Positions 32,229 to 44,196 of a stretch of DNA of 64,000 nt are shown one piece after another. Under the pieces are notes generated by a model. It saw only the letters and a program-made list of their open reading frames with translations, did not search any database and was not told where the DNA came from. This DNA comes from an uncultured Chthonomonadales bacterium (GTDB taxonomy: Bacteria > Armatimonadota > Chthonomonadetes > Chthonomonadales > CAJBBX01), in contig CALLMM010000016.1 of assembly GCA_938005745.1 (NCBI GenBank), forward strand, positions 12,192-76,191. The letters run 5' to 3'. Made by a program: the position numbers and the translations under genes. The first letter of the stretch is position 1. Each line of letters opens with the position of its first letter.

Positions 32229-32258
32229 TTGACGAGCAGGTATAAGTCGTGATATGAT
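32229..32258 (+). promoter_or_regulatory. Sigma70-type promoter for the ilvB leader
   Basis: TTGACG-18 bp-TATGAT with extended -10 TG. Confidence 0.6.
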
Positions 32259-32284
32259 TATGTCCACTGTCCAAATTTTCACAA

Positions 32285-32573
32285 GGCGTGGATGAGGCAA
32301 GTACGCGCAGGCTTCGGTTTCAGAGAGTCGCCGGGTGGTGCGAGGCGATAAGGGTCTGCGCGGAAACTCCCCTCGGAGCTGAACGGTCGAACGGAGGACG
32401 CCTGCGGGCGTCGGGCTTCCTAGTAGCCTGTTACGGGCGCGCCCGTTATCGCGCAGAAAGTGGAGCGGCACTGCGGTTACACAGGGGTAACCGGCATCTT
32501 CGGATGCGCGGCTCTACAAGGGTGGTACCACGTGAGTTCAGCCTCTCGTCCCTTGGGGATGAGGGGCTTTTTT
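32285..32573 (+). ncRNA. T-box leader (tRNA-sensing riboswitch), probable Leu (CUC) specifier, with terminator
   Basis: AGTA motif; AG-box CAGAGAG; GGTG box; specifier GAAA-CTC at 32367; CCGTTA box; T-box AAGGGTGGTACCACG at 32518-32532; terminator AGCCTCTCGTCCC/GGGATGAGGGGC-T6. Confidence 0.9.
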
Positions 32574-35005: not shown

Positions 35006-35272
35006 ATGACGGATGAGATCCGGGCGGATTCCTATCGCGATACGGAAGAGATGGGCTGCGGAGATCTGATGATCGCGCTCCGAAAGGCGATTCGACCTCT
35101 GGAACCCGGACAGGTGCTGGAGATCCGGGCGACCGATGCGGGGGCGTCCGAAGACATTCCGGCATGGTGCCGTCTGACCCGGCATGAACTGCTTGCCGGA
35201 CCGTGCGGACCCGATAACGCGCACTATTTCATTCGGAAGCGGCGGACCGACGCTGCGCCGCAAACAGGATAG
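35006..35272 (+). CDS. TusA/SirA family sulfur carrier
   Basis: MGCGDL..LEPGQVLEIRATD..DIPAWCRLT. Confidence 0.85.
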   Translation: MTDEIRADSYRDTEEMGCGDLMIALRKAIRPLEPGQVLEIRATDAGASEDIPAWCRLTRHELLAGPCGPDNAHYFIRKRRTDAAPQTG

Positions 35273-35284
35273 AAGGAGAGACTC

Positions 35285-35644
35285 GTGGCAAAGCTGCTCA
35301 TCAGTATCACCAACGCCAAAAACGATACCGACCGCGCGACGGTCGGGTTCGTGGTCGCCAACGCCTCGGTGGCTTCCGATGTGGAGACGGTCGTCTTTCT
35401 GAGCACGGAGGGCGTCCGGCTGGCGCAGAAGGGCTACGCCGATGACATCCATGAAGAGGGCTTCAAGCCGCTCCGGGAGCTGATCGGCGACTTCGTGGAG
35501 GCGGGCGGAACGATCTGGGTCTGTTCGCCCTGCTTCAAAAAGCGCGGACTGGATGAGAGTGCGCTGATCGAGGGCGCAACCATCGTGGGAGGCGCGAAGG
35601 CGGTGGAGTTTCTGGCGACCGGCGGAACAAGCATCACCTACTGA
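35285..35644 (+). CDS. DsrE family protein
   Basis: VFLSTEGVRLA..GGTIWVCSPCFKKRG; RBS AAGGAG. Confidence 0.88.
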   Translation: MAKLLISITNAKNDTDRATVGFVVANASVASDVETVVFLSTEGVRLAQKGYADDIHEEGFKPLRELIGDFVEAGGTIWVCSPCFKKRGLDESALIEGATIVGGAKAVEFLATGGTSITY

Positions 35645-36144
35645 GCAAGGCGGTCCGCAAGAGGCTGCGGGCGCGTCTGCGCGGCGAAAGAGGCGGGATA
35701 GAGGGTAATCGGCGCGTGATGCGGCGTCCCGATGCCGTAGACCTTCACCCATTCCGGCACGATCCGGATCCGCACATGCGGCAGACACCCGATGATCGGG
35801 TCGTTGGGGGCGATGCGCGCATAGCGCATCGCCTCCTCGAACAGCGAGGTCGGGGAGAGAAGCTGCGCGTTGGAGATGGGATAGAACCCCTGATGGCGCG
35901 CCAGCTCCCGGTAGACGGCGCGCGCGAAGAAGAGATGAAAGAAGTCGAGGGCGCGATCCCGCTCCGGCGTGAGGCGGTTTCCGAGCGCGCGGCGCACCTC
36001 GCGCGTCAGCCAGGCGGAGACGGCATGCGCCTGCGCCCGGTAGCGTCGGTCCGCGCTGCGATGCAGATACCAGGCGTTGAGCGAAATCCAGAGAGACAAG
36101 AGATACTCCCGCATTTTTTCTGTGTCGTTGTTCCACAATCCCAT
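35638..36144 (-). CDS. Hypothetical protein
   Basis: Fills the gap between dsrE and rhomboid with protein-like composition; no motif recognised. Confidence 0.5.
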   Translation of the reverse strand: MGLWNNDTEKMREYLLSLWISLNAWYLHRSADRRYRAQAHAVSAWLTREVRRALGNRLTPERDRALDFFHLFFARAVYRELARHQGFYPISNAQLLSPTSLFEEAMRYARIAPNDPIIGCLPHVRIRIVPEWVKVYGIGTPHHAPITLYPASFAAQTRPQPLADRLAQ

Positions 36145-36233
36145 TGAAGATTACCATCTCCGCAGAGAGAGTCGCTGCGGGAGTGGAACAGGGCGCAGAT
36201 CGAGAAGAGCCTGAGGACCAGAGACTTCACGTT

Positions 36234-36929
36234 ATGATTCCTCTTTACGATAACGTTCACGCGCGCTCTTTCTCCTTCGTCAACTGGGCGCTGATCGCCG
36301 TCAATGTCGCCATCTTCCTGTTTGAGGTGGCGCTAGGCGCGGGCGCTGAAGAGCTTGTCGCGGTCTTTGGCGTCGTGCCGGCGCGTCTGCTTGACCATCC
36401 CGGACCGGATCAGATCGCCACGCTCTTCACCTCGATGTTTCTTCATGGCGGATGGTCCCATCTGCTCAGTAATATGCTTGCGCTCTACATTTTTGGCGAC
36501 AACGTCGAGGACCGCATGGGGGGCGGTCGCTATCTGGCGTTCTATCTGCTATGCGGACTGGCAGCCGCCCTGACGCATGTCTTCTTTAACCCGGACTCGC
36601 CCGTTCCGACGATCGGCGCGAGCGGCGCTATCAGCGGCGTGCTGGGCGCCTACCTGATCCTCTACCCGACCGCGCGGGTCATCACGCTGATCCCGATCTT
36701 TTTCCTTCCCTGGCTGGTCGAGGTTCCGGCGCTAGTCTATCTGGGGGTCTGGTTTCTTTCGCAGCTGCTCAACGGCGCGCTGGCGATCATCATGGACGCG
36801 CAGGGGTTCGGCGGAGTGGCGTGGTGGGCGCATGCCGGCGGCTTCGTCGCCGGGATTGTGCTGGTGGGGCTGTTTATTCAACGGCGCTATCAGCGGCGCG
36901 TCTATGCGGATGAGTACTGGCCCTGGTGA
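36234..36929 (+). CDS. Rhomboid intramembrane serine protease
   Basis: MIPL.D start, SMFLHGGWSHL..NM, GASGAISG (Ser), WWAHAGG (His). Confidence 0.93.
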   Translation: MIPLYDNVHARSFSFVNWALIAVNVAIFLFEVALGAGAEELVAVFGVVPARLLDHPGPDQIATLFTSMFLHGGWSHLLSNMLALYIFGDNVEDRMGGGRYLAFYLLCGLAAALTHVFFNPDSPVPTIGASGAISGVLGAYLILYPTARVITLIPIFFLPWLVEVPALVYLGVWFLSQLLNGALAIIMDAQGFGGVAWWAHAGGFVAGIVLVGLFIQRRYQRRVYADEYWPW

Positions 36930-36943
36930 GAGCGGAGCGGCAC

Positions 36944-37783
36944 ATGGACCTGATAGGACTGTTCTGGGTTTTTCTGATCATCTCGTCTTTGCAGCCGGTC
37001 ATTCGCCAGAGAATGCTGGAGAGCGGGCGGCTGCGCCTGCTGGAGCGGCTCGAGCAGCAGCGACAGAGCCGGGTGATCGTGCTGATCCACCGTCAGGAGA
37101 CGCTGAGCCTGCTCGGCTTCCCGCTCATGCGCTACATTGATATCAACGATTCGGAAGCCGTGCTGCGTGCGATCAAGATGACCGACAGGGATGTGCCGAT
37201 TGACCTGGTGCTGCATACGCCGGGCGGGCTGGTGCTTGCGGCGGAACAGATCGCCTGCGCGCTGCGCAGGCATCCGGCGAAGGTTACGGTGTTTGTGCCT
37301 CACTACGCGATGTCGGGCGGGACGCTGATTGCGCTGGCGGCGGATGAGATCGTGATGGATGAGAACGCGGTGCTCGGTCCGGTAGACCCGCAGCTGGGGC
37401 AGCAGCCGGCGGCTTCCATCCTGAAGGTGCTGGAGCGCAAGCCGATCAGCGAGATCGAGGACGAGACGCTGATTATGGCGGACATCGCCGAGAAGGCGAT
37501 CCGTCAGGTGAAGACGACGGTCATCGAACTGCTGTCGGATCGGTTGGGCGCGGAGGAAGCCGAGCGGATCGCCAGCGTCTTGGCGACCGGCGTCTGGACG
37601 CACGACTATCCGATCAGCGTGCGCGAAGCGCGCAGCTTCGGGCTGCCGATCAGCACCGAGATGCCGCAGATGGTATATCAGTTGATGGGTCTCTACCCGC
37701 AGACCGCGCAGCGGCGTCCGTCGGTGGAGTACATTCCGATTCCCCGCTCGCGCGAGACGGAGCGTCGCCAGACCCACCGATGA
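36944..37783 (+). CDS. SDH_sah / S49 ClpP-like serine protease family protein
   Basis: LIHRQE, LHTPGG, PHYAMSGGTLIAL, LGPVDPQ, WTHDYPI. Confidence 0.9.
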   Translation: MDLIGLFWVFLIISSLQPVIRQRMLESGRLRLLERLEQQRQSRVIVLIHRQETLSLLGFPLMRYIDINDSEAVLRAIKMTDRDVPIDLVLHTPGGLVLAAEQIACALRRHPAKVTVFVPHYAMSGGTLIALAADEIVMDENAVLGPVDPQLGQQPAASILKVLERKPISEIEDETLIMADIAEKAIRQVKTTVIELLSDRLGAEEAERIASVLATGVWTHDYPISVREARSFGLPISTEMPQMVYQLMGLYPQTAQRRPSVEYIPIPRSRETERRQTHR

Positions 37784-37869
37784 GGAGATGACCCGCCTCT
37801 CCCGAGAAAGCGGATGCACGTTCACAGGGGCAGGCGCGCGCAGATGCGCCGGTCCCCGGGAGCCGAACC

Positions 37870-38613
37870 ATGCCTGAAGAGATCATCCTTGCTCCGGAGA
37901 CGATACAGTCGGACGCCGTCTGCGAAGGGGGCAATCTGGACTGCGGCTCCGGTCTTCTGCTGCTGATCAAGAGAGCGATGAACCCGGTTCCGGCAGGCGG
38001 GGTGCTGGAGATACGCAGCACCGAGATCAGCGTGCGGGAGGACCTGCCCGCCTGGTGCCGCATGACCGGCAACCCCTACCTCGGCTGGAGACCCGCGCCC
38101 GATACCAACCGCTTTTTTGTGCGGCGCGGCGGGGGCGCGGAGCCGGTGGAGGACGACCTGGAGAAAGCCCGCCAGTACCGCTGGCAGTGCCGAGTGCGCT
38201 GGACGGGCGGCATGAAGGCGAAGGTCTTCGCTCGCAACCACTCCTGGGAGGTCGGGCAGCCCGCCAGTTTCGATGTGAAGGATGAGGCGCCCGGTGCGGT
38301 CGAATATCTGCTGGGGGCGCTGGGAGCCTGCCTGGCGATGGGCTTTCAGATCAACGCCTCGCGGCGGGGCGCGCCCGTGGAGGAGATCGAGGTCTCGCTC
38401 TCCGGGCAGATAGATAACATTCTGGTCTTTCTGGGACTGGAACAGACCGGGCACAGCGGCTTTCGCGAGATCACCGGGACGCTCTATGTGCGCTCTGACA
38501 CCGACGAGGAGACGCTGCAGGCGATCTGGGAGCAGACGCTGGCCGCCTCTCCGCTGGCGAACTCCCTGACGCATACGGCTTCCCTGAATATCGCGATGCG
38601 GGCGGTTCCCTGA
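37870..38613 (+). CDS. TusA-OsmC fusion protein
   Basis: N-terminal LDCGSG..LEIRST..DLPAWCRMTG; C-terminal P.AVEYLLGALGACL OsmC-like domain. Confidence 0.85.
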   Translation: MPEEIILAPETIQSDAVCEGGNLDCGSGLLLLIKRAMNPVPAGGVLEIRSTEISVREDLPAWCRMTGNPYLGWRPAPDTNRFFVRRGGGAEPVEDDLEKARQYRWQCRVRWTGGMKAKVFARNHSWEVGQPASFDVKDEAPGAVEYLLGALGACLAMGFQINASRRGAPVEEIEVSLSGQIDNILVFLGLEQTGHSGFREITGTLYVRSDTDEETLQAIWEQTLAASPLANSLTHTASLNIAMRAVP

Positions 38614-38625
38614 AGGAGTATAGAT

Positions 38626-39801
38626 ATGGGTTCTCTTCCGTTGTTTCCCGTGACGGTGGTCGGCAGTCTGCCGCGCTCCAAGCCGATGCAGGACGCGCTG
38701 CGTAAGCGGCAGTCGGGGCGGATGACGGAGGCGGAGTTTCAGGCGGTCGCCGATGTGGCGGTGCGCGAGTGCCTGAACATGCAGATCGCCGCCGGGGTGG
38801 ACATCGTCAGCGACGGCGAACAGCGGCGCGATAACTTCTACTCATTCGTCGCGGAGAAGGTGGAGGGCGTCCGCCTGATGAGCCTGGCGGACATGCTCGA
38901 GTATGTGGAGGACAAAGCCGCCTTTGAGAGGCTGCTCAATGCGCTGGACGTGCCCGCCTTCGCCATCAAAAACCCGGTGGTCGTCGGGAAGCTGCGGCGA
39001 GCCAGACCGCTGGCGCTGGATGACTTCCGGTTTCTGAAGAACCTGACCGACCGGGCGATCAAGGTTGCGCTGCCGGGTCCCTATCTGCTGACCCGCTCCA
39101 TGTGGGTCAAGAGCCTGTCGGCAGACCTCTATCCGACCAAAGAGGCGCTGGGCGAAGATGTAACCCGCATCCTGCGCGAGGAGTTGATCGCCCTGCGGGA
39201 CGCGGGCTGCGACATCGTGCAGTTTGACGAGCCGGTGCTGACTGAGGTCGCCTTTGCCGGACCGCACGCGACCCACACCTTTATGTGCGCCGCGCTCTCC
39301 GAAAAGAGCAGCCCAGAGGCGGAACTGAGCTTTGCGGTGGACCTGCTGAACCGGGTGGTCGAGGGCGTCGAGGGCGTCAAGACCGCGCTGCATGTCTGTC
39401 GGGGCAACTGGAGCCGCAACGAGAGCGTGCTGCTGCAGGGAGCCTACGACCCGCTGATCCCCTACTTCTGTCGGATGAAGGTGCGGCAGTTTGTGCTGGA
39501 GTATGCGACGGAGCGGGCGGGGAGCGTGGAGGCGCTGGCGGCGCTGCCGGAGGATCGGGAGATCGGACTGGGCGTCTGCAACCCGCGCACGTCAGAGATC
39601 GAAACGGCGGAGTTTATCGCCGCAAAGGCGCGGTCGCTGCTGAAGTTTCGTCCGGCGGAGACCCTCTACCTGAACCCCGACTGCGGCTTCGGCACGTTTG
39701 CCGACCGACCGGTCAATACGCTGGAGACGGCGGCGATGAAGCTGCGCGCCCTGCATGACGCCGCGCAGGTCCTGCGGGCGGAGCATGGGCGCGGGGCGTG
39801 A
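38626..39801 (+). CDS. Cobalamin-independent methionine synthase II-like (single-barrel MetE family) Zn enzyme
   Basis: VVGSLPR, DGEQRR, QFDEP, LHVCRGN, LEY, LNPDCGF Zn ligands. Confidence 0.9.
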   Translation: MGSLPLFPVTVVGSLPRSKPMQDALRKRQSGRMTEAEFQAVADVAVRECLNMQIAAGVDIVSDGEQRRDNFYSFVAEKVEGVRLMSLADMLEYVEDKAAFERLLNALDVPAFAIKNPVVVGKLRRARPLALDDFRFLKNLTDRAIKVALPGPYLLTRSMWVKSLSADLYPTKEALGEDVTRILREELIALRDAGCDIVQFDEPVLTEVAFAGPHATHTFMCAALSEKSSPEAELSFAVDLLNRVVEGVEGVKTALHVCRGNWSRNESVLLQGAYDPLIPYFCRMKVRQFVLEYATERAGSVEALAALPEDREIGLGVCNPRTSEIETAEFIAAKARSLLKFRPAETLYLNPDCGFGTFADRPVNTLETAAMKLRALHDAAQVLRAEHGRGA

Positions 39802-42108: not shown

Positions 42109-43422
42109 ATGAACAATAGGACCGCCTCCAGCCAGAGGCGACTGGAGCCCAGACAGTGGCGTCTGGAGACGATGGCGCTGCACGGTTTTCCCTCCGAGGA
42201 GAGGCATGTCGGTCCGCACTCCGTTCCGATTGTGCAGTCCGCCGCCTTTCAGTTCGCTTCGGCGGAGGAAGCCGCGGCGCGGTTTGCGCTGGACGACTTC
42301 GGACCGATCTATACACGGGTCGGCAACCCGACGGTCGAGGCGTTCGAGGAGCGGATGGCGGCGATGGAGGGCGGCATCGGGGCGATGGCGACCGCCAGCG
42401 GGCAGGCGGCGGCGTTCTATGCGATTGCGACCATCACGCATCAGGGGCAGAATATCGTCTCCTCGACCTCGCTCTATGGGGGGATCTACTCGCTGCTGCG
42501 CAACATTCTGCCCGGTTTCGGCATCGAGACCCGCTTTGTGCCGGTCGCCGATCTGGACGCCTGGGAGCGCGCCATAGATGGGCGGACGACCTGCCTCTAC
42601 GCGGAGATGGTCGGTAATCCGCTGCTGGATACGCCCGATCTGGAGCGGCTGGCGGGGCTGGCGCGCCGGCATCGGATCCCGCTCATCATAGACAACACCG
42701 TGCCGACCGCCTGCCTCTGCCGACCGTTTGCGTATGGCGCGGATGTGGCGGTCTACAGCGCGACCAAGTATATCGGCGGACACGGCACCACAATCGGGGG
42801 CGCGGTCGTGGACAGCGGGCGGTATGACTGGACGAACGGACGCTTTCCGCAGTTTTCGGAGCCGGACCCGATCTATCACGGCATCCGGCTCGGCGAGAAG
42901 TTCGGGCGGATGGCGTATCTGGTGCGTATGCGCGGTCACTATCTGCGCGATATCGGCGCCTGCATCGGTCCGCACGACGCCTGGAACCTGATACAGGGGA
43001 TCGAAACGCTGCCGGTGCGGATGGAGCGGCACTGCGACAACGCCGAAGGGCTGGCGCAGTGGCTGTCCGACCATCCGAAGGTGGAGCGCGTTCTCTATCC
43101 GGGGCGGGAGGGGCATCCGACGGCGGAGTACGCGCGACGCTATCTGAAGCGGGGCAGCGGTATGCTCGGACTCTACGTGAAAGGCGGGTTCGCGGCGGCG
43201 CGGCGCATGGTGGAGACGACCCGGCTCTTCGCCCATGCGCCGAACCTGGGAGACTGCAAGTCGCTGATCATCCATCCGGCTTCGACGACCCATTCGCAGG
43301 TGGCGCCGGAGGTGCGCCGCGCCATCGGCATCGAGGACAACTTCCTGCGCCTGTCGGTGGGGCTGGAGCATATCGAAGACCTGAAGGACGACCTGGATCG
43401 CGCGCTGGACGGCGCGCAGTAG
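42109..43422 (+). CDS. metY: O-acetylhomoserine aminocarboxypropyltransferase (sulfhydrylase)
   Basis: IYTRVGNPT, ASGQAA, SATKYIGGHG (PLP Lys), IIHPASTTHSQ, RLSVGLE. Confidence 0.85.
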   Translation: MNNRTASSQRRLEPRQWRLETMALHGFPSEERHVGPHSVPIVQSAAFQFASAEEAAARFALDDFGPIYTRVGNPTVEAFEERMAAMEGGIGAMATASGQAAAFYAIATITHQGQNIVSSTSLYGGIYSLLRNILPGFGIETRFVPVADLDAWERAIDGRTTCLYAEMVGNPLLDTPDLERLAGLARRHRIPLIIDNTVPTACLCRPFAYGADVAVYSATKYIGGHGTTIGGAVVDSGRYDWTNGRFPQFSEPDPIYHGIRLGEKFGRMAYLVRMRGHYLRDIGACIGPHDAWNLIQGIETLPVRMERHCDNAEGLAQWLSDHPKVERVLYPGREGHPTAEYARRYLKRGSGMLGLYVKGGFAAARRMVETTRLFAHAPNLGDCKSLIIHPASTTHSQVAPEVRRAIGIEDNFLRLSVGLEHIEDLKDDLDRALDGAQ

Positions 43423-43440: not shown

Positions 43441-44196
43441 ATGAACCGTATGTTCCGGGCGGTAAGAGCGCTTCCGCTCATGCTGATGGTGGCTGCGCTG
43501 GCGGTCGGCGGATCCGCCTGGACGCAACGGCAGTCGAAACCGAAGCCGCCGGAGAGACCGCGCTACGAATATCGCAAGGATCACGACCCCGACGGCATCG
43601 GCAAGTTCTATATGGGGCGCGAGATCGCGCAGGTGATGGGGCATCAGGCGGCGGACTGGCTGGATCGTCCCGAGCGGGAGGCGGAGGAGGCTCCCTCCAT
43701 GCTGCTGCGCGCCCTCAAGATCAAGCCGGGAATGTCGCTGGTGGATCTGGGAGCGGGAAGCGGCTACCTCACCTTCCCGATGGCGCGCCTGACCGGACCG
43801 ACCGGAAAGGTCTACGCGGTGGACATTCAGCCGGAGATGCTGCAGATCATCCGCAGAAAGATGAAGGAGCAGGGCGTCTCCAATATCATCCCGGTGCTGG
43901 GAACCGTGACCGACCCCAAGCTGCCCCCTAGCTCCGCCGATCTGATTTTGCTGGTGGATGTCTATCATGAGTTCGATCATCCCTGGGAGATGACCCGCGC
44001 GATGGTGCGCGCCCTGAAGCCGGGCGGACGGCTGGTGCTGGTGGAGTACCGCAAGGAGGACCCGGACGTTCCCATCAAAGAGCTTCATAAGATGTCGGAG
44101 AAGCAGGTGAAGCGCGAGATGTCGGTACATCCGATCCGATGGGTGGAGACGATCGGCATCCTGCCCCGGCAGCATATCATCGTTTTTCAGAAGTAG
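43441..44196 (+). CDS. Class I SAM-dependent methyltransferase with signal peptide
   Basis: [38 protein letters not shown]. Confidence 0.88.

Follow-up and report, generated by a model that had tools for sequence, protein, structure and literature searches.

Within a 64,000-nucleotide (nt) stretch of Chthonomonadales DNA (hereafter the window, whose positions serve as coordinates throughout), a gene for a zinc enzyme resembling the methionine synthase MetE lies downstream of the genes for three cysteine-bearing carriers, namely TusA1, DsrE and a TusA-OsmC fusion. The joint recurrence of these four genes in many phyla takes the arrangement far beyond chance, and judged from gene content and order they appear to constitute a self-contained, horizontally spread cassette, which in the window genome is split by an antisense open reading frame (ORF) and a protease insertion. 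The cassette is tentatively regarded as encoding a partner-dependent 'core' (single-barrel, B12-independent) methionine-synthase-type enzyme of a new kind, a reading whose chance of being correct is put somewhat short of even. Its four genes are as follows.

35006..35272, plus strand: TusA1 carrier, 88 amino acids (aa); Pfam TusA, E 2.8e-11
35285..35644, plus strand: DsrE carrier, 119 aa; Pfam DsrE, E 1.7e-16
37870..38613, plus strand: TusA-OsmC fusion, 247 aa; Pfam OsmC, E 3.1e-14, and TusA, E 3.3e-6
38626..39801, plus strand: single-barrel MetE-like zinc enzyme, 391 aa; Pfam Meth_synt_2, E 2e-34

An earlier reading of the letters alone (the sequence-only reading) had delineated 35006..39801 as a sulfur-relay module. 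All the domains and motifs that it had listed for TusA, DsrE (with its CxxC), TusA-OsmC and the MetE-like enzyme are present at their positions, the enzyme gene does start 12 nt past the TusA-OsmC stop, and metY does lie nearby (42109-43422). As a module, the four genes stand but their contiguity does not, since three unrelated genes, the antisense ORF, a rhomboid and a ClpP-like protease, are found inside.

Recurrence of the cassette

When the enzyme profile was run against one genome per species, 226 relatives were obtained, of which the best 80 loci were kept and typed by tblastn with the window proteins, within a flank limit of 8 kb; 50 of the 80 are from Poribacteria and thus kin. The full trio of TusA, DsrE and TusA-OsmC stands 5' of the enzyme gene on the same strand at 52 of these 80 loci, and a partial set at nine, seven of which are ended by the contig end and two by the flank limit. 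Three further loci have less than 3 kb of upstream DNA and no member of the set, and 16 have no member in the stretch; for the latter, a TusA-OsmC orthologue (62-66% identity) was found elsewhere in 15 genomes, in several just 9-13 kb upstream, and a whole-genome search of G139 yielded no such orthologue. The 30 loci outside Poribacteria divide into 20 full sets, five partial sets, two stretches that are too short and three without any member, and their hosts include Armatimonadota, Entotheonellaceae, Blastocatellia, Brocadia, other Planctomycetota, Nitrospinota, Alpha- and Gammaproteobacteria, Gallionella/Nitrosomonadales, Thermoflexales and unclassified records. Linkage of the enzyme to its partners in other genomes, on which the sequence-only reading had made its proposal depend, is therefore borne out, and carriers and enzyme represent a conserved functional unit.

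That the genes are mere neighbours without shared function might be argued from the three unrelated genes that interrupt the set in the window and from Poribacteria, in which TusA-OsmC and the enzyme are separated by anything from 84 to 7561 nt, occupied, as judged from cluster representatives, by genes of a defence or mobile type (GmrSD, SNF2-Mrr and ParE, among others). This explanation is contradicted by the co-occurrence and fusion data and has only a very slight probability: of 77 cases that could be assessed genome-wide, drawn from more than ten lineages, 76 have the genes together; 19 of 25 non-Poribacteria loci have a spacing of no more than 50 nt between TusA-OsmC stop and enzyme start; and domain fusions exist. 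A TusA domain is joined to the N-terminus of a MetE-like barrel in 8 of the 16 relatives of unusual length that were scanned among the representatives at 50% identity, such as P0127 (524 aa, 47% identical), P0141 (500 aa) and P0165 (503 aa). As the motifs of this fused domain, GG-x-LDCG-x-GLLL (DCG(S/N/T)G) and DLPAWCRL, are those of the TusA half of TusA-OsmC, that half is suggested to cooperate directly with the enzyme; co-folding of the enzyme and zinc with this domain (TusA-OsmC 1-95) gave a score of 0.00 in two runs, which counts neither way. Between phyla, the enzyme is 59-73% identical and the neighbours beyond the four genes vary. The pairwise identities of enzyme and TusA-OsmC are correlated (Pearson 0.94 for 325 pairs from 26 loci, in which pairs and kin are non-independent).

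The cassette is described nowhere in the literature searched, most subscription journals lying outside that search, and the words TusA, DsrE and OsmC do not occur in Price et al. 2021 (PMC7857596). Within the same literature, these partners are described for no methionine synthase, as the sequence-only reading had supposed for the folate-independent ones.

The MetE-like enzyme

The enzyme scores 119.8 bits against Meth_synt_2. Its AlphaFold model, with a mean predicted local distance difference test (pLDDT) of 83.9 and a predicted template modelling score (pTM) of 0.88, is weak at residues 214-225 (below 50) and 357-360, and in a Foldseek search it matches PDB 3RPD best (E 6.4e-25, 25-26% identity), followed by T. 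maritima MetE; according to the model, the enzyme has the fold of the MetE C-terminal barrel. The residues H256 and C258 (H256-V-C258), E292 and C353 align by phmmer with the zinc ligands of T. maritima MetE, and the ligands in E. coli MetE are H641, C643, E665 and C726 (PMC7857596). In addition, S14, E65 and D201 align with Ser22, Glu73 and Asp188 of 3RPD (phmmer, 92 bits), a MesD in which these are the methionine-binding residues (Price et al. 2021, PMC7857596), and none of the three varies among 22 diverse relatives, whose identity goes down to 27%. Given these residues, the enzyme is expected to hold homocysteine and, like MetE and MesD, to use its zinc to activate the thiol of this substrate.

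W160 and E207, for their part, align with Trp539 and Glu583 of T. maritima MetE, with the offset fixed by the match of Glu642 to E292, and Trp539 and Glu583 are the pterin contacts of the C-terminal barrel in that protein (Pejchal and Ludwig, PMC539065). An acidic residue at 207 is confined to the cassette and fusion clades in the alignment of 22 relatives. The family is large: among representatives at 50% identity the enzyme has 212 matches at E <= 1e-30 and 1487 at E <= 1e-10, and the members of the family are labelled 'B12-independent methionine synthase' in the source. A search for longer homologues of 686-2000 aa returned four proteins, and the models of two-barrel MetE remain far from their cut-offs (TIGR01371, 99.5 bits versus 929.95; NF003556, 97.7 versus 541; Meth_synt_1, 16.3 versus 27).

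The Cys221 loop and a probable selenocysteine clade

Together with C258 and C353, Cys221 is present in 78 of 78 sequences. This residue (TFMC221A) sits in a family-specific insertion of 13 residues that is absent from T. maritima MetE and at which the alignment with 3RPD breaks, and the loop coincides with the low-confidence segment 214-225 of the model, being flexible and located beside the donor-side position of the pterin-contact counterparts.

Two relatives, P0145 (220 aa) and P0216, end one residue short of the Cys221 column, and in a search with P0145 all 120 clusters listed (P0145 and P0275-P0393; 81-100% identity) end in ...TFM. The clusters of this type, 118 of which are 218-224 aa and two 197 aa long, come from contigs of up to 5.5 Mb, and two bear Desulfofustis or Desulfocapsaceae names. 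As a systematic stop at codon 221 resembles a selenocysteine (Sec) TGA in ordinary gene calls, the P0145 clade probably carries Sec at position 221 and would be an unannotated selenoprotein family, the ORF having been split by gene callers. The occurrence of either Cys or Sec would mark residue 221 as catalytic, in a redox or nucleophilic role. In P0135 the column holds Trp and P0217 stops directly before it, a pattern that may be the same Sec effect under another gene caller. Scanning of metagenome contigs with a degenerate HTFM-TGA-AAL pattern gave three matches, none of which encodes a homologue; the pattern was too narrow, because the probable Sec clade has RRTFM.

The carrier proteins

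TusA1 (PF01206, 43.5 bits versus a gathering cut-off of 28.6) contains the motifs EEMGCGDLMIAL and EDIPAWCRL, and its Cys18 (GCGD) and Cys55 (PAWC) are kept in all 50 aligned orthologues. DsrE (PF02635, 60.9 bits versus 22.7) has its CxxC motif in WVCSPCFKKRG, and both C80 and C83 occur in 53 of 53 orthologues; C80 aligns with a Cys of the DsrE-like protein PDB 3MC3 and is presumably equivalent to Cys78 of DsrE/TusD.

In TusA-OsmC, the OsmC domain (PF02566) reaches 53.6 bits versus 27.5, and the TusA domain, at 27.3 bits, falls slightly below the cut-off of 28.6; a profile of the TusA-OsmC alignment (A3) finds E. coli TusA/YhhP structures at E ~1e-3. The motifs of the fusion are NLDCGSGLLL, EDLPAWCRM, LGALGACLAMGF and AASPLANSL, with C18, C25 and C63 invariant across orthologues. 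The D[IL]PAWC shared by the two TusA domains is what we take to be the ordinary C-terminal TusA motif. Neither domain contains CPxP, the canonical motif of SirA-like domains (PMC5322559), and the active-site Cys is invariant in the motifs GCGD (C18, TusA1) and DCGSG (C25, fusion). The departure from CPxP, to which the sequence-only reading had drawn attention as unusual, is real, yet these motifs are invariants of the cassette family as a whole.

The first catalytic Cys of the OsmC domain, Cys154, is found in 56 of 58 sequences and is replaced by Asp in two Planctomycetota-like sequences. The domain has an invariant S-P and lacks the pair of catalytic Cys that defines OsmC/Ohr peroxidases, SPL sitting at what we take to be the position of the second one (the 'CP' motif). 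Its sole NCBIfam match is 'OsmC-related (seleno)protein', at 30.3 bits versus a cut-off of 95, and a protein atlas lists TusA-OsmC clusters under automatic names alone.

Methionine metabolism in cassette genomes

Two-barrel MetE is absent from all 12 cassette genomes examined, as would be expected if a B12-independent enzyme took its place. In seven Brocadia-type genomes (G041, which is complete, G046-G050 and G092) there is no PF02574 match, and the cassette gene is the only PF01717 gene. S-adenosylhomocysteine hydrolase, which produces homocysteine, is encoded in five of five Brocadia-type genomes tested, and a Cys/Met enzyme dependent on pyridoxal phosphate (PLP) is located directly 3' of the cassette in L043, L054 and L084.

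Neither a true Cys/Met PLP enzyme nor HcyBio was found in nine cassette genomes (5 Brocadia, 2 Nitrospinota and 2 Poribacteria), including one complete genome and one chromosome-level assembly, and the five from Brocadia are also without MetX and MetA. In the Brocadia genome of Lawson et al. 2017 (PMC5460018), a methionine synthase is noted while the other steps were not identified. It was considered whether the cassette replaces a missing PLP-dependent homocysteine synthase, but the same-order control lends no support to this idea, the PLP enzyme being absent from 43 of 56 cassette-less genomes versus 4 of 5 cassette genomes; moreover, the enzyme is present in 19 of 23 other cassette genomes as well as in the window genome. 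Across the Brocadia order, 47 of 61 sampled genomes are devoid of a true Cys/Met PLP enzyme, and the order is characterized either by widespread auxotrophy or by an unrecognised methionine route.

Proposed function and alternatives

In the reading favoured here, homocysteine would be methylated to methionine, possibly from a methyl-pterin, while the carriers would deliver sulfane sulfur or reducing equivalents for the turnover of the enzyme. The relay would run in series from Cys18 of TusA1 to Cys80/Cys83 of DsrE, then to Cys18/Cys25 in the TusA domain of TusA-OsmC, and lastly to Cys221 of the loop, with the second TusA domain docking at the position occupied by the N-terminal barrel in two-barrel MetE. 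The sequence-only reading had proposed a thiol or persulfide relay that would be coupled to alkyl or methyl transfer, and this functional idea is partly supported.

A number of points weigh against this reading. To our knowledge, known methionine synthases need no sulfur carriers, and TusA and DsrE are classically carriers of persulfide or thiosulfonate, which speaks for sulfur rather than methyl chemistry. Within the enzyme, the column that pairs W160 with Trp539 is aligned with moderate confidence, the DMV motif of MetE has become N70-F71-Y72, and Arg493 and Arg496 align with F112 and K115; the enzyme also stays under every NCBIfam cut-off (the best being NF003317, 186 bits versus 406), as do 20 of its relatives. 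The set is found in 3 of the 41 genomes of the window's order (G000, G001 and G006, the last with fragments at contig ends). Rfam searches detected no S-adenosylmethionine (SAM), B12 or other riboswitch at 10 other cassette loci, and in the window the sole leader is a T-box that is read as specific for Leu. Furthermore, the window genome encodes a complete MetH of 1232 aa with all five domains, as well as a stand-alone homocysteine S-methyltransferase of 289 aa, and the presence of MetH means that the cassette is not required for methionine there; the cassette, which sits close to metY inside an ilv/leu operon headed by the Leu T-box, is proposed to be an accessory route beside MetH. The argument that the enzyme is the only synthase of Brocadia and hence essential is weakened as well, because genomes without a recognisable synthase are the norm in that order: 49 of 61 sampled are without PF02574 (E <= 1e-20) and PF01717 (E <= 1e-5, a threshold that might miss divergent core synthases).

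The sulfur chemistry of the carriers raises the question of whether sulfur, and not a methyl group, is transferred. If so, the relay would pass sulfane sulfur via Cys221 to the zinc site and onto an amino acid held in the homocysteine triad, so that homocysteine would be formed from activated homoserine without PLP, or homocysteine persulfide would be made or removed, and the resulting disulfide would be resolved by the vicinal Cys of DsrE and TusA-OsmC. In every studied system TusA and DsrE domains are sulfur carriers (PMC4175335, PMC11094781), and the invariance of all the active cysteines of the carriers, the fusion of a TusA domain to the enzyme in sister clades and the location of Cys221 on the donor side of the active site are compatible with such an insertion, as are the nine genomes without a PLP enzyme and HcyBio and the methionine gap noted for one Brocadia genome (Lawson et al. 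2017, PMC5460018). It is nevertheless considered unlikely. The same-order control removes the specificity of the missing PLP enzyme, most other cassette genomes and the window genome do hold this enzyme, PLP-free gamma-replacement on a MetE barrel has no known precedent, Brocadia would remain without a methionine synthase, and the conserved counterparts of the pterin contacts would be left without a role. Rather doubtful is also a complete route to homocysteine and methionine free of both PLP and B12, in which a four-step relay of Cys (in some lineages Sec) would load sulfane sulfur on residue 221 for the zinc centre to build in; if true, such a route would fill the methionine gap of Brocadia, noted by Lawson et al. 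2017 (PMC5460018) for one genome of that genus, and might do the same in genomes of Nitrospinota and Poribacteria without known homocysteine-forming enzymes.

Selenium handling and redox protection have likewise been weighed against methyl transfer, and both are held to be improbable. In the former, the carriers would move selenide or perselenide and the enzyme would act on a seleno-amino acid or methylate selenium, for use or detoxification. One whole clade probably has Sec at 221, YedF, a selenium-linked protein, is a TusA(SirA)-DsrE fusion with CGXC (PMC5322559), DsrE-like (UXXC) and OsmC-like (UXXT) selenoproteins are on record (PMC1088965), and the sole NCBIfam match of the OsmC domain, though below its cut-off, is to a (seleno)protein model. 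The selD gene of the window genome (G000:C12:78050-78985, L090) has one in-frame TGA and probably encodes a selenoprotein; an in-frame TGA is also seen in selD of most relatives of the order. Selenocysteine in a protein, however, marks a redox-active residue and not a selenium substrate, 29 of the 41 genomes from the order encode selD while three have the module, and the carrier genome of the same genus (G001, 92% complete) gave no selD match. Neither TusA1 nor DsrE matches the YedF model at E <= 0.01, and neither the window nor any of the flanks scanned at 18 non-Poribacteria loci has a selenium gene next to the cassette. As for protection, an ordinary core methionine synthase would be accompanied by Cys proteins that keep the zinc thiolates and Cys221 reduced or that scavenge peroxide via a one-Cys OsmC. 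It has been reported that the OsmC family consists of thiol peroxidases (bioRxiv 10.64898/2026.10.01.755906), that T. maritima MetE has an oxidised, disulfide-bonded form (PMC539065) and that positions alternating between Cys and Sec are typical of redox proteins (PMC1088965). The vicinal Cys pairs (CxxC in DsrE, Cx6C in TusA-OsmC) would also suit dithiol-disulfide exchange. Three dedicated proteins and direct TusA fusions nonetheless seem excessive for upkeep, and the anaerobic genus Brocadia is among the hosts of the cassette. In addition, the OsmC domain is missing its second Cys, at the position that we assume for it, and has lost the first to Asp in two sequences.

Locus layout and neighbouring genes

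The features of the window that surround or interrupt the cassette are listed below.

32229..32258, plus strand: promoter-like site; 10/12 consensus matches with TG extension, a consensus match alone
32280..32556, plus strand: T-box leader, 5' of ilvB; Rfam RF00230, 101.1 bits versus a gathering score of 93
32540-32568: terminator hairpin of the T-box leader; terminator-like site
35638..36144, minus strand: antisense 168-aa ORF; no Pfam or NCBIfam match
36110..37847, plus strand: 1.74-kb inserted segment; absent from the same-genus relative L010, which has 77 bp there
36144-36929, plus strand: rhomboid protease; Pfam Rhomboid, E 9.5e-36
36926-37783, plus strand: SDH-type ClpP-like serine protease; SDH_protease, E 1.1e-119; NF047768, 438 bits versus a cut-off of 250
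42109..43422, plus strand: metY (O-acetylhomoserine sulfhydrylase); TIGR01326, 528.8 bits versus a cut-off of 495.1

On the plus strand, the genes follow one another in the order ilvB, ilvN, TusA1, DsrE, rhomboid, ClpP-like protease, TusA-OsmC and MetE-like enzyme, and then a small glycine-zipper membrane protein, a HAD phosphatase, ilvC, metY, a SAM methyltransferase and leuA. The T-box specifier was read from the alignment as CUC (Leu), and the string from ilv through the cassette and metY to leuA may accordingly respond to the charging of leucyl-tRNA. The metY gene, 2.3 kb 3' of the cassette on the same strand, is context and lies outside it.

The antisense ORF, which parts DsrE from the remaining cassette in the genus, is also present in L010 (an uncultured Chthonomonadaceae bacterium) with 80% amino-acid identity. 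Since the substitutions between the two are skewed to the third codon position (18/23/44 by codon position), it fits a real coding gene, one that is lineage-specific and outside the module. L010 is collinear with the window except at 36110-37847, with a MetE-like enzyme that is 95% identical, and its lack of the rhomboid and protease pair implies either an insertion in the window genome or a deletion in L010. In a Pfam scan, the antisense ORF, the rhomboid and the ClpP-like protease showed no tie to the module. The two protease ORFs overlap by 4 nt, forming a pair of a membrane and a soluble protease amid a biosynthetic operon.

Independent contigs from hot-spring and microbial-mat runs share the layout of the window, insert included, so the layout is no assembly artefact; X2 record 17 spans the whole 5 kb with 54 differences, and X10 record 13 covers 36414-38496. 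Among the contigs aligned to the window, several cover the insert and none joins across 36110-37847; the joints found there have short sides of 20-33 letters and resemble conserved rhomboid or protease stretches of other organisms.

Some further neighbours were observed in the window genome and at other loci. The SAM methyltransferase between metY and leuA (43441-44196, 251 aa), also present in L010, has weak matches to arsenite/UbiE-type models and a hydrophobic N-terminus resembling a signal peptide, and a Methyltransf_11 gene lies 5' of the cassette in L060. Elsewhere in the window genome, the gene of the 289-aa homocysteine S-methyltransferase (G000:C1, L117 427-1296) overlaps a URO-D-like ORF (1293-2099) by 4 nt, and the two may form a second methyl-transfer pair on homocysteine. 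In Poribacteria loci such as L014, L018, L019 and L027, the enzyme is followed by a conserved gene string for DUF4432 and DUF3352-like proteins, an uncharacterised protein and, lastly, a BCCT transporter. A B12-binding two-domain protein was sighted once, 2 kb 3' of the enzyme in Nitrosomonadales (L062 11140-11799), and a protein combining DinB_2 and FGE-sulfatase domains, presumably an EgtB/OvoA-like architecture, was sighted once downstream in Gammaproteobacteria (L059 10822-11721). Just 5' of the cassette, a transglutaminase-core protein is encoded at three loci (L013 70-786, L069 5187-6275 and L071 5089-6204), two of which are from Planctomycetota and one labelled Proteobacteria.

Significance

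Methionine synthesis is among the best-mapped pathways, and many genomes are still without a recognisable final step or homocysteine source. Here, a large enzyme family is tied to three cysteine carriers that no methionine synthase is known to use. Once it is established what the relay delivers, either the core synthases that depend on partners, so far MesA to MesD, would gain a fifth member, as in the favoured reading, or a new zinc/persulfide (or selenium) chemistry on the MetE barrel would come to light. Better predictions of auxotrophy for anammox bacteria, sponge symbionts and nitrite oxidisers would follow, and position 221, with its probable exchange of Cys and Sec, offers a ready catalytic residue for mutation.

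Comparison with known systems

Among the closest known systems is MesD/MesX (PMC7857596, 3RPD), which like the MetE-like enzyme consists of one MetE-type barrel without the folate-domain half. MesD, which provides the best structural match, has the same zinc ligands and Ser/Glu/Asp triad, and in both cases a dedicated partner is encoded adjacently. The two differ in that identity to 3RPD is just 25-26% (phmmer, 92 bits), and the Mes families, in which MesD is assigned by a BLASTp score of at least 390 bits to ACIAD3523, are less than 30% identical to each other (PMC7857596). The partner of MesD is DUF1852 (MesX), whereas those of the cassette are TusA, DsrE and TusA-OsmC; DUF1852 was found neither in 11 window proteins (E <= 0.01) nor in 64 flanking ORFs of 18 other loci (E <= 1e-5), a genome-wide search not having been made. 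In 3RPD, moreover, the W160 region is deleted and the Cys221 loop is missing, and MesD is described from aerobes only (PMC7857596), in contrast to a cassette that also occurs in the anaerobic Brocadia.

Two-barrel MetE (TIGR01371; 1XDJ/1T7L) agrees with the MetE-like enzyme in catalytic barrel, zinc site and homocysteine triad, and its pterin contacts Trp539 and Glu583 have counterparts there, but the MetE-like enzyme is without the N-terminal barrel and the DMV motif and adds the 13-residue Cys221 insertion and obligate cysteine-carrier partners. MesA, MesB and MesC, too, are MetE homologues with one barrel, drawing on a distinct donor protein, and they are tied to methanogens or to the corrinoid protein of the Wood-Ljungdahl pathway (PMC7857596), unlike the cassette, whose hosts include aerobes; these families are set apart here by their descriptions. 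A corrinoid link of the MesA/B/C type is not seen, as one of the 18 non-Poribacteria loci scanned (L062) has a B12-binding protein in its vicinity and the window has none.

The OsmC fold and the first catalytic Cys are shared by TusA-OsmC with the OsmC/Ohr thiol peroxidases, from which it differs by its fusion behind TusA, by SP at the presumed position of the second Cys and by the Asp that replaces the first Cys in 2 of 58 sequences. YedF (TIGR03527) comprises the same domain types in the same order, with a CxxC in its DsrE part (PMC5322559), and in the cassette these are separate genes, which neither match its model nor adjoin selenium genes. In the TusA-TusBCD/DsrEFH relays and the DsrE3-TusA pair of sulfur oxidisers, as in the cassette, a TusA stands beside a DsrE-family gene with conserved cysteines. 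Compared with these relays, the cassette has a single small DsrE with an extra Cys (CxxC) rather than a heterotrimer, and its TusA domains carry GCGD and DCGSG where CPxP is usual; sulfur would end up on a MetE-like enzyme as last acceptor, not on a tRNA thiolase, DsrC or the sHdr complex.

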